From: Escherichia phage Mizar
DNA: 64,000 nt
Sequence record: PV714129.1
Direction: 5' to 3' (one strand)
Within the stretch, counting starts at the first letter, position 1, and each line of letters starts with the position of its first letter. Below are positions 24,700 to 27,533 of this stretch, in pieces. The notes under the pieces are model-generated. The model saw only the letters and a program-made list of their open reading frames with translations, made no database searches and was not told where the DNA came from. Made by a program: the position numbers and the translations under genes.

Positions 24700-25154
24700 A
24701 AAGAGTCTCTTAATAGGTTTAACACATCAACAAATTCAGTTTCGGTTAGTATTGTATCATCTTTTGTTAGGTGGCTAGCCATGCTGTGCTTCAAAATTTT
24801 TCCTTTAGAGGCTTGTAAGGCATCACGAAACCCCTTATTTTGGATCGCGGCTTCAAAATATGCATTTGTGTATAATTCTTTCCATGCTTCAGAGTATCTT
24901 GAAAATGGAACTCCTAACCAGAAGAGAGTCCCACGGTCCTGAGCTCTTGCATAAGACCTTCCAGCTTGCTGTGCAGCCAATCCAGACAACCCAAATATAC
25001 GTCTTTGCTGTTCAACATTTTTCACCTTACATCCTTGGAGAAATCCTTCAAGACCTCCGAATTGAATACCATCCATAACAAAAGGCCATTGAGCAAAGTT
25101 ACTTAATGCACATGACGGCCACTTGAAATTACTTCTTATTTCTAATTCAGACAT
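24696..25154 (-). CDS. NADAR (YbiA-like) domain protein
   Basis: 152 aa from ATG at 25152-25154; ALSNFAQWPFVMDGIQF aligns with E. coli YbiA GDFSNFAAWPIKVDGKTW; track ORF starts 3 codons earlier on GTG. Confidence 0.65.
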   Translation of the reverse strand: MSELEIRSNFKWPSCALSNFAQWPFVMDGIQFGGLEGFLQGCKVKNVEQQRRIFGLSGLAAQQAGRSYARAQDRGTLFWLGVPFSRYSEAWKELYTNAYFEAAIQNKGFRDALQASKGKILKHSMASHLTKDDTILTETEFVDVLNLLRDSL

Positions 25155-25359
25155 CTTTAACACTTATAATTTCAACATCAGCCCAATGACCGTAACTAGG
25201 CAGACGGTCTTCAATAGATAAACCACCGCCATTTTTAAGCATTTTAATTGTCTTGATAAACGGTTCATCCTGTGGATGAATAGGCGAGCAGTCAGTCACA
25301 CGATAAGTAACTTCAACCATTTCCGTGCCTAACAATTTCTGGATTAATTTATTCAACAT
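25147..25359 (-). CDS. Hypothetical protein, 70 aa
   Basis: ATG confirmed; overlaps downstream gene start by 8 nt. Confidence 0.5.
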   Translation of the reverse strand: MLNKLIQKLLGTEMVEVTYRVTDCSPIHPQDEPFIKTIKMLKNGGGLSIEDRLPSYGHWADVEIISVKDV

Positions 25360-25546
25360 GTTTCAACCCTTTAATAGGAGATAACTCTTTACCCATACGT
25401 ATGTCAGAAGTCCAATCAACCCATTGAACAGCATACGCTTCATTGATAATTCCAGCGGCGGTTTTAAATTCAGGGAGAACTTTAAAAATCACCCCAGGAA
25501 TTCCAACACCTTTTAATTGGACTGTTTGTGCTATTAAAAATTTCAT
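25349..25546 (-). CDS. Hypothetical protein, 65 aa
   Basis: ATG confirmed; early-type promoter upstream. Confidence 0.5.
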   Translation of the reverse strand: MKFLIAQTVQLKGVGIPGVIFKVLPEFKTAAGIINEAYAVQWVDWTSDIRMGKELSPIKGLKHVE

Positions 25547-25600
25547 ATTTTTCCACTTACTAAAGAAATCATTATACTCTAATCCGTCCTTGGATGTAAA

Positions 25601-26215
25601 CTACTTAACGAAATTAATTTCTACCGGATGAACAACAGGTTGAGCAGTGATATATTGAGTAATTGCTTTCATGACTAGAGCTTCAGAACCAGGATTTTTC
25701 TCAACGAATTCACGTGCTCGGTTATGAGCTTCGAGTTCACTTAGTAAACCACTTCGTTGGCATCCACGGTCTTGAGTACCCTGTTCAGATAAAAGGACTA
25801 CTACATATTTTTCATCGTCATAGGGCTTAGCCAGTTGAGCAAATGTTCCTTTACTTCCAAAAGGAGAGTTATGACGCCACATCACGCCGTGAGGAGTTTC
25901 AACCTTCGTATATTCGTGCGGTCCATTTTTCTTAATTTCTTGATGTGGAACTTCATAGACCTTAGGGTTAGGACATTCAATAAAATGCTCATCTAAATCA
26001 GTCGAGAATATTAAAGTAAAACAATTACTGAATTTACCGACACCTGCCTGATAAATTTTACCTTCAGAAGTTCTAATTTCACAAACTGAGCCGGCATCAG
26101 TAACTTCTAAAACTTCAAAAGGCTCGATAAGGTCATATGAGAACATGTTTTTAAGGCGTGGAGTAATATCCCCATTTTTAAAATTCATTTTATAAAAAGT
26201 ATTAACTTTAAACAT
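25601..26215 (-). CDS. Hypothetical protein, 204 aa
   Basis: ATG at 26213-26215 with SD GAGGAAA; track ORF adds 10 codons that run through a stem-loop. Confidence 0.65.
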   Translation of the reverse strand: MFKVNTFYKMNFKNGDITPRLKNMFSYDLIEPFEVLEVTDAGSVCEIRTSEGKIYQAGVGKFSNCFTLIFSTDLDEHFIECPNPKVYEVPHQEIKKNGPHEYTKVETPHGVMWRHNSPFGSKGTFAQLAKPYDDEKYVVVLLSEQGTQDRGCQRSGLLSELEAHNRAREFVEKNPGSEALVMKAITQYITAQPVVHPVEINFVK

Positions 26216-26250
26216 AATTTCCTCAGTGGGAGCTTCGGCTCCCAATTAAT

Positions 26251-26616
26251 TTAGATATCAAATTCGTTAAGAACTACATCAAAGATTGCTTCGAGATGTT
26301 CAGGTTTAGCTCGATGACTCAGGATATGACGAATCCAAGTTTTAACCAGAAGTTTACGATTAACACCGTTCCAGCAAGGATGAGTACCTAAATCACGCTG
26401 ACGGAAATCATCATCTAATGCAATTTTAAAATTTGAACCTTCCATCGTGATTGAAACCGTGATGCCATTTTCAAATCGCATATAAACGTAATTAGGAGTC
26501 ATATACTGCTCAATTTCACATACTGAACCATTTTTATGTTTCCATAAGCAAATAACTTCAGAAGAACCAGCGATACCGTTAGAAACATATTTACGTTCGA
26601 AGTTGATGTAGTTCAT
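26251..26616 (-). CDS. Hypothetical protein, 121 aa
   Basis: ORF with own early-type promoter. Confidence 0.6.
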   Translation of the reverse strand: MNYINFERKYVSNGIAGSSEVICLWKHKNGSVCEIEQYMTPNYVYMRFENGITVSITMEGSNFKIALDDDFRQRDLGTHPCWNGVNRKLLVKTWIRHILSHRAKPEHLEAIFDVVLNEFDI

Positions 26617-26657
26617 TTTATTCTCCAGATGTTTAAGTTGTTTGTTGGTACAGGTCT

Positions 26658-26686
26658 ATAATAACATAACCTGTACCAAAGTAAAC
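26658..26686 (-). promoter_or_regulatory. Early promoter for ORF 26251-26616
   Basis: Minus strand GTTTAC, 17 nt, TATTAT; inverted repeat GGTACAGG/CCTGTACC at 26648-26677. Confidence 0.45.
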
Positions 26687-26690
26687 TGTT

Positions 26691-27059
26691 TTATGCAACT
26701 TTAATCCAATTGTCTAAATTTAAAACACCTTTGGCTTTCATTTTTTCGATCAGGTTATCTGCTGTAATGCGTCCATTTTGATACCATGTGACATCTTCAG
26801 AGTAACCAGTTTCTTCGTCAACATATGTTTCTGAGCGAATTTTACCTGTAATAATAGTTTTTAATTCGTATGTGTCACCTGTGAAAAAGTTTGCTAACAC
26901 AATTTTCCAAGAGAAATCATTTGAAGGACCTTCAGGGGTCATACAACTTACGATCTCAAATTGCTCTTTGTATAACATCCACTGGAATTCTTTAATTTCG
27001 ATAGCTTTATAACCATCGTGGTCTTTACATTTGATGTATGAGTTCAGATTGATTTTCAT
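26691..27059 (-). CDS. Hypothetical protein, 122 aa
   Basis: ORF with own early-type promoter. Confidence 0.6.
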   Translation of the reverse strand: MKINLNSYIKCKDHDGYKAIEIKEFQWMLYKEQFEIVSCMTPEGPSNDFSWKIVLANFFTGDTYELKTIITGKIRSETYVDEETGYSEDVTWYQNGRITADNLIEKMKAKGVLNLDNWIKVA

Positions 27060-27167
27060 TTTGTTCTCCAGGTTGATTTATTGATTAGGTGGTACAAGTC
27101 TATAGTAACACATCCTACAGGAGAGTAAACATTTTTTTTAAACTTTTTCTGCCCTAAACGCACAAAA

Positions 27168-27185
27168 GGGAGACCGAAGTCTCCC
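27168..27185 (-). terminator. Terminator after the 59-aa basic protein gene
   Basis: GGGAGAC-CGAA-GTCTCCC then UUUUGUG on minus-strand RNA. Confidence 0.75.
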
Positions 27186-27190
27186 TAAAA

Positions 27191-27370
27191 TTATGCAACA
27201 ACCTTTCCAAAACGAGAAGCATCATCTCGAAGAACTGCACGTGCTCTGCGCATGATCTTCTCAACTGTTTGATTAATACGAGAGTTCGACCCACGCTTGT
27301 ATCCAGCGCGTTTAGAGGTACCATCAACTTTCTTTTCAACTGCTTTCTTTGCTTTAGCTTGTTTTGCCAT
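27191..27370 (-). CDS. Small Lys/Arg-rich basic protein, 59 aa
   Basis: Manually translated: MAKQAKAKKAVEKKVDGTSKRAGYKRGSNSRINQTVEKIMRRARAVLRDDASRFGKVVA; followed by terminator; below track cutoff; weak SD. Confidence 0.5.
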   Translation of the reverse strand: MAKQAKAKKAVEKKVDGTSKRAGYKRGSNSRINQTVEKIMRRARAVLRDDASRFGKVVA

Positions 27371-27533
27371 TATAAATTCTCTTTAAATGAAAATGCAGGA
27401 CTTATTGACATTGCCTGCGCAAGCCCTCAAGGGGAACATAGGTTTTGGATATTTAACGACAGGATAACCATAAACCCGTCATCATACCTACCATGACTTA
27501 CACAGCTAACCTTTTGCTGACGCATGATAGCAA

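Follow-up and report, generated by a model that had tools for sequence, protein, structure and literature searches.

The gene 30-rIII early cluster of Escherichia phage Mizar and its small basic protein gp30.9

In a stretch of 64,000 nucleotides (nt) from Escherichia phage Mizar (sequence record PV714129.1; the whole stretch is here called the window), six small genes lie on the minus strand between a homologue of T4 gene 30.3 and rIII. Their open reading frames (ORFs) code for 70, 65, 204, 121, 122 and 59 amino acids (aa) and are found where an earlier reading of the letters alone, made without database searches (the sequence-only reading), had placed them. Its assignment of the DNA to a T4-like phage and of the block to the interval between a NADAR gene and rIII holds by synteny with T4; the label NADAR was right as well, 30.3 being AdfN. 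From rIII downstream the order is 30.9, 30.8, 30.7, a lineage-specific gene for 204 aa in the slot of T4 30.6, 30.5 and 30.4, followed by 30.3 (adfN). The same place in the T4 reference genome carries 30.3, 30.4, 30.5, 30.6, 30.7, 30.8, 30.9 and rIII.

The 2.5-kb stretch aligns over its full length with Escherichia phage ST0, SA79RD and many others at 95-97% identity; 767 phage records match. SA79RD is classified in Straboviridae, Tevenvirinae, Mosigvirus (RB69 group). Judged from these comparisons it is near certain that the window stems from a Mosigvirus, i.e., an RB69-like T-even phage, and that the block is its version of the accessory early cluster between gene 30 and rIII of T4. The gene order recurs in 27 related loci. 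In all 26 loci that reach far enough upstream to be scored, the window and T4 included, 30.9 follows rIII immediately downstream on the same strand, with a spacer of 120-416 nt (163 nt in the window).

The genes had been taken as devoid of recognisable motifs, which is wrong, and they are not unrecognised. They are members of the T4 30.4-30.9 families, annotated since the 1990s, for which Pfam and PHROG families exist, and all six proteins match PHROG families of unknown function. On sequence evidence every member of the block thus belongs to an already named family, T4 30.4, 30.5, 30.7, 30.8 and 30.9 or phrog_17531, and is in this sense already known. The 121-aa protein scores 176.1 bits against PF06919 (gathering cut-off 27; residues 1-120 of 121) and the 122-aa protein 151.1 bits against PF06019 (cut-off 25; residues 2-121 of 122). 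Both matches are full-length and far above the cut-off, and both families are of unknown function. Searches of Pfam, NCBIfam and PADLOC with the 70-, 65-, 204- and 59-aa proteins gave nothing beyond families of unknown function, and a sequence search of the PDB with the 30.7, 30.8 and 204-aa proteins gave nothing.

All six ORFs are real genes and no products of chance, as judged by the match of each to a phage protein family and by the ratios of non-synonymous to synonymous substitution (dN/dS) of the 59-aa and the 204-aa genes. None of the six has a paralogue within the window. Among overlapping ORFs of at least 60 aa, two had been described as antisense to the 59-aa gene; this applies to 27269-27496 (plus strand), whereas 27154-27339 lies on the same strand in another frame.

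The 59-aa product deserves particular attention. It was described as very basic, and so it is: 18 Lys and Arg stand against 5 Asp and Glu, with an isoelectric point of 11.35. It shares 96% identity over 56 residues with T4 gp30.9 (NP_049823; phrog_1427), which UniProt lists as an 'uncharacterized 11.1 kDa protein in Gp30-rIII intergenic region', and in both phages the gene sits directly downstream of rIII. The last three residues differ between the two proteins, and a one-residue insertion or deletion is located in the Lys-rich tail. The family (phrog_1427) comprises 65 clusters at 63-98% identity. By translated search (tblastn) gp30.9 is present in 1006 phage records, i.e., phages of Escherichia, Klebsiella, Shigella, Enterobacter, Yersinia, Salmonella, Serratia, Citrobacter and other T4-like phages. 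Frequently it is better conserved than rIII; in one locus (L017) the figures are 98% for 30.9 and 68% for rIII. Against 24 related loci dN/dS is 0.12-0.45, the start MAKQ is kept in all, and insertions and deletions comprise whole codons. As judged by these alignments gp30.9 is under purifying selection.

The residues M1 and K3, S19, K20, R21, A22, Y24, K25, S28, N29 and R31, and further R42, A43, V46, F54 and G55 are invariant in the alignment. From S19 onwards they outline a motif SKRAxYK(R)xSNxR and, behind it, an amphipathic helix containing RA..V...FG; both are present in gp30.9 of the window and kept in distant relatives. AlphaFold2 predicts the helix confidently at residues 30-54 (predicted local distance difference test, pLDDT, 81-89), and the basic N-terminal half is of low confidence. 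A profile search of 1.84 billion representatives retrieved 17 proteins at E <= 0.001, one of them a spurious repeat protein, and no cellular homologue. Nearly all of the 17 are short and basic and share one architecture; the sequences examined have 55-92 aa and an identical plan: MAK..., a Lys/Ala tail, SKRAGYKRxSNKR and the helix. Some add Lys/Ala/Pro-rich C-terminal tails of a kind typical for proteins that bind nucleic acid, and relatives of about 50% identity retain motif and helix. One of them, P0090 (L028), is encoded in a 176-kb T4-like genome in the order cd, 31.1, 31, rIII, 30.9, 30.8, 30.7. A resemblance to SlmA, the sole profile match in the PDB, has an E-value of 0.1, covers 25 residues of one helix and was judged to be due to chance. 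In automated annotations (OR352946.1, PV390659.2 and a UniRef entry for Klebsiella phage PMBT63) 30.9 goes under the name '1,4-alpha-glucan (glycogen) branching enzyme, GH-13-type'. Since the protein has 57-68 residues this label is a propagating error.

The layout of transcription was read from the sequence, with a threshold of 9 of 12 consensus matches in the promoter scan. The assertion that most genes possess their own early promoter is true for half of them. Predicted promoters of the T4 early type are located directly upstream of 30.8, 30.7 and 30.5; a canonical one is missing before the 59-aa gene, and neither the scan nor a reading of the sequence located an early promoter upstream of the 204-aa gene or of 30.4. 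The 30.8 promoter stays below the scan threshold, yet fits the consensus TTTACW..TAYWAT discussed below. No canonical early, middle or late promoter was found in the rIII-30.9 spacer; therefore, 30.9 is probably co-transcribed with rIII. For T4 rIII, transcription from early (proximal), middle and late promoters has been reported.

A terminator of its own had also been claimed for the 59-aa gene, and this prediction is borne out by a GC-rich stem-loop directly followed by a U-tract (Table 1). The hairpin is more stable than each of 200 shuffles. All related loci have a hairpin plus T-run at this point with differing, compensating stems (GGGAGAC, GGACTCC, GGGAACC), as expected of an intrinsic terminator, and in most of them a GTTTAC promoter comes next. 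T4 30.9 shares with the window the leader sequence as well as the downstream arrangement of terminator, then promoter. The stem-loop after 30.7 has a different, compensating stem in T4, GGGGC-UUCA-GCCCC. A further stable hairpin has the -10 element of the 30.7 promoter within it; it could arise only in transcripts that read through from 30.8, or in DNA. A weaker relative of this promoter-leader sequence precedes 30.8.

RegB cuts GGAG in T4 early mRNAs and so shuts them off. GGAG is contained in the Shine-Dalgarno (SD) sequences of 30.8 (27066-27069) and 30.7 (26623-26626) and is absent from those of the other four genes. The T4 30.7 mRNA is a documented target of this endoribonuclease at GGAG, and cleavage has been shown for the T4 30.7 mRNA alone.

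A nucleotide comparison with T4 reveals a mosaic. Identity amounts to 86% in rIII and to 94.8% in the segment 27203-27485, which comprises 30.9 and its leader and is the best-conserved stretch of the region. 30.8 has no nucleotide homology to T4. From 30.7 through the stem-loop, the SD and the first codons of the next gene identity is 85%; then the body of the 204-aa gene again is without homology, followed by 71% in 30.5 and 89% in the 3' end of 30.4 together with 30.3. T4 homology ends just past the ATG of the 204-aa gene and resumes at the start of 30.5. The comparison of the two sequences shows that the 204-aa gene has taken the place of 30.6 precisely from the stem-loop/SD behind 30.7 to the start of 30.5. 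Of the 27 related loci, every one that reaches far enough carries rIII and 30.9. Most also have 30.8 and 30.7, between which other genes are inserted. What lies between 30.9 and 30.7 varies across these loci.

Such junctions are reminiscent of the promoter-early stem-loop (PeSL) cassettes of T4-like phages, with the T4/PST promoter consensus TTTACW-N17-TAYWAT; the published sets come from RB49/phi1, PST and nt-1 and not from Mosigvirus (PMC2839356, PMC4122927). The window likewise has a stem-loop and then an early promoter between small accessory genes of the hyperplastic region, as in the hairpin 27161-27186 followed by the promoter 27102-27130, and the gene replacement falls exactly at such boundaries. 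Changes between related genomes are associated with them: the T4 homology breaks here, and the content from 30.9 to 30.7 is variable. Differences exist, too. The full layout, terminator then promoter, is realised only at the 30.9/30.8 junction; between 30.8 and 30.7 the hairpin encloses the promoter, and the stem-loop that follows 30.7 lacks one. As shown by comparison of these sequences, the units are bounded by PeSL-type stem-loop/promoter cassettes at which genes are swapped.

The spacer between rIII and 30.9 is long for such tightly packed genomes. In the window it is made up of four predicted hairpin modules (Table 1), the order of which differs between phages. Module A is found in nearly all spacers, and its 11-nt loop and 5' flank (U)AUGAUG are conserved. 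Pairing is kept in 92% of cells of its stem; covariation scores 0.50 compared with 0.17 in shuffles, none of 500 shuffles reaches this value, and slid controls are paired to 26-54%. Two pairs covary, UA/AU and CG/GC/UA. These alignment statistics argue that the spacer is under selection for RNA structure. Other explanations of module A were discarded. As a promoter it would have -35/-10-like hexamers only 13-14 nt apart, and no MotA box or TATAAATA; as a mini-ORF (MMTGLWLSCR) its frame and stop vary across loci; and as dispersed repeats the spacer modules do not qualify since each is single-copy in the window. One public annotation calls module A a terminator; it has no U-tract. A search of Rfam with the region and with eight related loci gave no significant match.

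A small hairpin which pairs the U/C-rich tail with the SD of 30.9, and so might sequester the SD, recurs in the minimum-free-energy folds of most loci; it is weak, with a probability of about 0.5 that the SD is unpaired. The hairpin E element is encountered with compensating stems in three further loci, L005, L016 (CAGA/UCUG, CACG/CGUG) and L024, where a U-run follows it. A 32-codon ORF which starts in hairpin E (27427-27525) is not conserved; its ATG is ACG in L016. In the window the rIII leader, which lies between gene 31 and rIII, shows homology to the stretch immediately preceding 30.9 in L008 and other Klebsiella-type phages. The local alignment scores 58 against 26 for the best of 500 shuffles, and the shared segment consists of hairpin, U-rich tail and SD. 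This homology implies that one leader cassette serves different genes in different phages.

Table 1. Genes and predicted signals of the cluster, its surroundings and corresponding elements in related loci. Positions are those of the window unless a locus is named; identities per gene are from translated comparison (tblastn) with the T4 locus; dG, folding free energy; z, its z-score against shuffles.
Feature	Position	Strand	Description
30.3 (adfN) homologue	24696-25163	minus	Pfam Phage_30_3
30.4 homologue, 70 aa	25147-25359	minus	phrog_2042, E 2.8e-33; 44% identity to T4 gp30.4; start overlaps end of 30.5
30.5 homologue, 65 aa	25349-25546	minus	phrog_1690, E 2.4e-28; 64% identity to T4 gp30.5; syntenic
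Predicted early promoter, 30.5/30.4	25571-25600	minus	TTTACA-N18-TATAAT; 11/12 consensus matches (scan)
204-aa gene	25601-26215	minus	phrog_17531, E 1.9e-146; occupies the T4 30.6 slot
Stem-loop after 30.7	26227-26244	minus	GGGAGC-CGAA-GCUCCC, no U-tract; dG -12.2, z -2.2; then SD of the 204-aa gene
30.7 homologue, 121 aa	26251-26616	minus	PF06919 (Phage_T4_Gp30_7); 94% identity to T4 gp30.7
Hairpin across the 30.7 promoter	26645-26679	minus	dG -19.5, z -3.5
Predicted early promoter, 30.7	26658-26685	minus	TTTACT-N16-TATTAT (scan)
30.8 homologue, 122 aa	26691-27059	minus	PF06019 (Phage_30_8); 38% identity to T4 gp30.8
Predicted early promoter, 30.8	27102-27130	minus	GTTTAC-N17-TACTAT; 8/12 consensus matches
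Predicted intrinsic terminator after 30.9	27161-27186	minus	GGGAGACC-UUCG-GGUCUCCC + UUUUGUG; dG -19.1 kcal/mol, z -3.5
30.9 homologue, 59 aa	27191-27370	minus	phrog_1427, E 2.4e-31
Structured rIII-30.9 spacer (30.9 leader)	27371-27533	minus	four hairpin modules
Hairpin + U-rich tail	27385-27418	minus	just before the SD of 30.9; tail can pair with the SD
Mini-hairpin	27424-27434	minus	CCCCUUGAGGG
Module A	27441-27488 including 5' flank	minus	hairpin 27458-27480, GACGGG-UUUAUGGUUAU-CCUGUC; tail GUUAAAUAUCCAAAACC (hairpin + tail 27441-27480)
Hairpin E	27488-27530	minus	CUAUCAUG...CAUGGUAG; inner stem CAGC/GCUG; conserved loop
rIII	27534-27782	minus	phrog_1457
rIII leader	27796-27872	minus	
330-aa ORF	29176-30168	minus	upstream of the dCMP deaminase gene
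Module B loci	e.g., L008:2749-2891, L012, L013, L015, L017-L020, L022, L025, L027, L028		
Further module B loci	L032 5945-6087, L033 987-1129, L038, L039, L040, L044	minus (L032, L033)	
T4 spacer block	L002 5542-5785 = T4 130541-130784	minus (L002)	TTGGAGATTCACTGCC...GACCCCGACAGTTTTACGGTGTACC

In other phages the place between rIII and 30.9 is filled differently. Fifteen of 28 related loci (JS98-, VR5-, Klebsiella- and other T4-like phages) carry a non-coding block of about 140 nt, module B, which folds into seven helices. Of its 45 pairs 22 have compensatory double changes; 96.5% of cells are paired compared with 87% in shuffles, none of 500 shuffles is as high on any measure, and slid controls attain 30-41%. 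Two pairs are mostly G-U, in keeping with transcription in the sense of rIII and 30.9. A covariance model built from 14 copies detected six further ones, with scores of 166-174 bits, in genomes of JS98-, VR5- and other T4-like phages outside the training set; neither the window nor the T4 locus gave a match. Twenty IMG/VR contigs of 93-178 kb contain a 20-nt signature, once in each genome, and there is no match in Rfam. By these sequence statistics module B, which is absent from the window, is a candidate for a new structured RNA. In the spacer of T4 and its close relatives there is a different, extra block of about 120 nt which the window lacks, with a long-range complementarity CCGT..CTGTC / GACAG..ACGG. 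By eye, the 3' parts of this block and of module B are alike, but the covariance model does not detect the T4 block.

What is known about the expression and necessity of these genes comes from T4. A time-course classified 30.4-30.8 as 'early' at the RNA and the protein level and 30.9 as 'early' at the RNA level (PMC9697503, Table S2), so the designation of the block as early was correct. Transposon mapping (HIDEN-SEQ) showed T4 30.4-30.9 to be non-essential on E. coli K-12, with 6 of 6 sites hit in 30.9. In CRISPRi-ART knock-downs 30.9, 30.4, 30.5, 30.7 and 30.8 are 'Not Fit', i.e., without effect on fitness, and 30.6 is 'Semi-Fit'. For T4 30.4-30.9 no defence-specific phenotype is reported, with the exception of 30.5. 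The T4 30.5 protein co-purifies with the host polyphosphate kinase (Ppk) and activates bNACHT11, a defence protein related to nucleotide-binding leucine-rich-repeat (NLR) proteins; it is one of three redundant T4 triggers of bNACHT11 (bioRxiv 10.1101/2024.12.17.629029). T4 30.3, AdfN, is a NADAR enzyme which protects T4 from DarTG1. The general idea that T4-like phages keep functions for host takeover and anti-defence in such blocks agrees with these publications. A literature search on the functions of gp30.9, 30.8, 30.7 and 30.4 found none beyond the works cited. Driukas and Nivinskas (Biologija, 2003; cited in PMC9409239) reportedly dealt with the in vivo expression of rIII and 30.9.

The remaining genes can be dealt with briefly. 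The 65-aa protein is the orthologue of T4 30.5, with which it shares PHROG and position, and by analogy it probably binds host Ppk; binding of Ppk and activation of bNACHT11 are known for the T4 protein alone. The AlphaFold2 model of gp30.7 (pLDDT 84) consists of seven strands and two helices, and no informative structural relative was found in the PDB. In the mechanical ORF list the 204-aa gene begins with a TTG (26245). The product of 204 aa, which public annotations use as well, results from an ATG at 26215 with GAGG in front of it. This protein has no tblastn match in the T4 locus and does not belong to the family of T4 gp30.6 (phrog_2153). Among 5.8 billion proteins it has two 90% clusters only; it is 100% identical to a deposited sequence, and its relatives are near-identical only. 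The N-terminal 100 residues weakly resemble other PHROGs of unknown function. Against two Mosigvirus relatives dN/dS is 0.12-0.21, and among the 27 related loci the gene is present only in the closest relative of the window. On this distribution of sequences the 204-aa gene is Mosigvirus-specific.

Two observations concern neighbouring genes. The start of the 30.3 (adfN) homologue is ambiguous: a GTG at 25163 yields 155 aa, an ATG 9 nt downstream 152 aa as in SA79RD and T4; with either start it overlaps the end of 30.4 (25147-25163, minus strand). Farther upstream, the 330-aa ORF has a counterpart in SA79RD which carries the annotation Tyr-sensitive phospho-2-dehydro-3-deoxyheptonate aldolase (DAHP synthase). 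In T4 this position is occupied by cd.1, which indicates that the ORF is an auxiliary metabolic gene of this lineage.

How might the cluster operate? About four short early units may be envisaged. One would comprise rIII and 30.9 and extend through the structured spacer to the strong terminator after 30.9. 30.8 would be transcribed from its own GTTTAC promoter, 30.7 and the 204-aa gene from a second, 30.5 and 30.4 from a third. RegB and the terminators would limit these units, and phages would exchange them at the stem-loop/promoter junctions. The products would have their targets among host components early in infection, and would be of consequence in certain conditions only; we infer that all six are accessory, conditionally useful early proteins. 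We hold this explanation as a whole, i.e., identity, architecture, modularity and accessory function, with good confidence, and its parts on identity and architecture are near certain. For gp30.9 strong conservation coupled with dispensability indicates a function which is needed outside laboratory conditions. Its most plausible activity is the binding of nucleic acid, as the sequence-only reading had surmised, RNA more probably than DNA, a proposal we make tentatively and at somewhat less than even chances. Sequence and model point in this direction: the charge, the disordered Lys/Ala tail, the invariant Arg/Lys/Tyr/Asn segment, the Lys/Ala-rich tails gained in relatives and the single amphipathic helix. 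Contact would be made via the disordered Lys/Ala-rich tail and the segment SKRAGYKRxSNxR, and the C-terminal helix would serve dimerisation or docking.

Several points weigh against these views. Nothing significant was found for gp30.9 in Pfam, NCBIfam, PADLOC or the PDB, and neither homology nor experiment ties it to nucleic acid. An acidic protein surface would be an equally suitable partner for a basic amphipathic micro-protein. Co-transcription with rIII is deduced solely from the missing canonical promoter in the sequence, and there is a weak promoter candidate, TTAGCT-N17-TATGAT, around 27476-27504 upstream of 30.9. Binding of Ppk by 30.5 of the window is extrapolated from a 64%-identical protein. 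Finally, the T4 gp30.9 protein was undetected by mass spectrometry (PMC9697503, Table S2). We consider the latter a weak argument against translation because a 6.5-kDa protein with 18 Lys/Arg should give very few usable tryptic peptides.

Conceivably, gp30.9 binds an acidic host protein and acts as a small inhibitor or decoy in host takeover or anti-defence, similar to 30.5 and 30.3/AdfN. The predicted helix 30-54 with its hydrophobic stripe would need a partner, the cluster holds proven host-directed and anti-defence genes, and dispensability on K-12 is what one expects of a conditional counter-defence gene. Yet counter-defence genes usually are patchy and variable, whereas gp30.9 is present in >1000 Tevenvirinae-type genomes at 60-98% identity across genera. 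Further, the extra Lys/Ala-rich tails of relatives suggest unspecific binding of polyanions, and no PADLOC or known anti-defence family matches. We therefore regard a host-protein target as possible, though on the unlikely side. A joint action with RIII on the machinery of translation or mRNA decay (ribosomal protein S1, RegB, the ribosome), with rIII-30.9 as one functional operon, appears distinctly less probable. RIII binds S1 and blocks RegB activation, as published, and small, very basic proteins are typical binders of rRNA. The two genes are adjacent in every scorable locus and share one strong terminator. But all this is evidence from context, the genes are set apart by a long structured spacer in which there are terminator-like hairpins, and among the 1.84 billion representatives no ribosomal or ribosome-associated protein is similar to gp30.9.

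Last, the 59-codon ORF might not be translated at all, its conservation being that of an RNA or DNA element, e.g., a 3' untranslated region of rIII or a regulatory region. The missing mass-spectrometric signal, the high nucleotide identity of leader plus ORF between T4 and the window, and the RNA-structure selection acting on the flanking spacer would be compatible with this. On the other hand, synonymous changes outnumber non-synonymous ones, ATG and frame are kept in all loci with insertions and deletions of whole codons, relatives of about 50% identity keep the amino acid motif on diverged DNA, and the scarcity of tryptic peptides may account for the missing signal. An untranslated ORF is very improbable.

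Within our preferred reading of gp30.9 as a nucleic-acid binder a bolder variant may be formulated, which we judge improbable as it stands. gp30.9 could be an arginine-rich RNA-binder which targets the spacer hairpins of its own transcript (module A here; the seven-helix RNA of about 140 nt in JS98, VR5 and Klebsiella-type relatives), forming an autoregulatory or antitermination-like circuit. Comparable systems are the RNA-binding peptides with arginine-rich motifs (lambda N/boxB) and the translational autoregulators of T4 (RegA, gp32, gp43). Like these, gp30.9 is small, very basic and, as predicted, largely disordered, and it is encoded beside conserved RNA hairpins with conserved loops. It has no sequence similarity to them, however, and a role of the hairpins as nut site or operator is an analogy only.

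The block itself adds nothing new. It is annotated in hundreds of genomes, and the T4 data already show early expression and dispensability on laboratory hosts. What is new here are the quantified conservation of gp30.9 and its motif, the count of three promoters, the exact boundaries of the gene replacement and the RNA-structure signal of the spacer. gp30.9 is a cheap target since a peptide of 59 residues can be synthesised. If the proposed circuit were true, it would govern the extent to which the rIII transcript is prolonged and translated into 30.9, and gp30.9 and the spacer RNA would form a protein-RNA pair that is conserved across Tevenvirinae and has not been described before. Post-transcriptional control has T4-type phages among its classic models, and a new conserved RNA element beside rIII would be of interest to that field.

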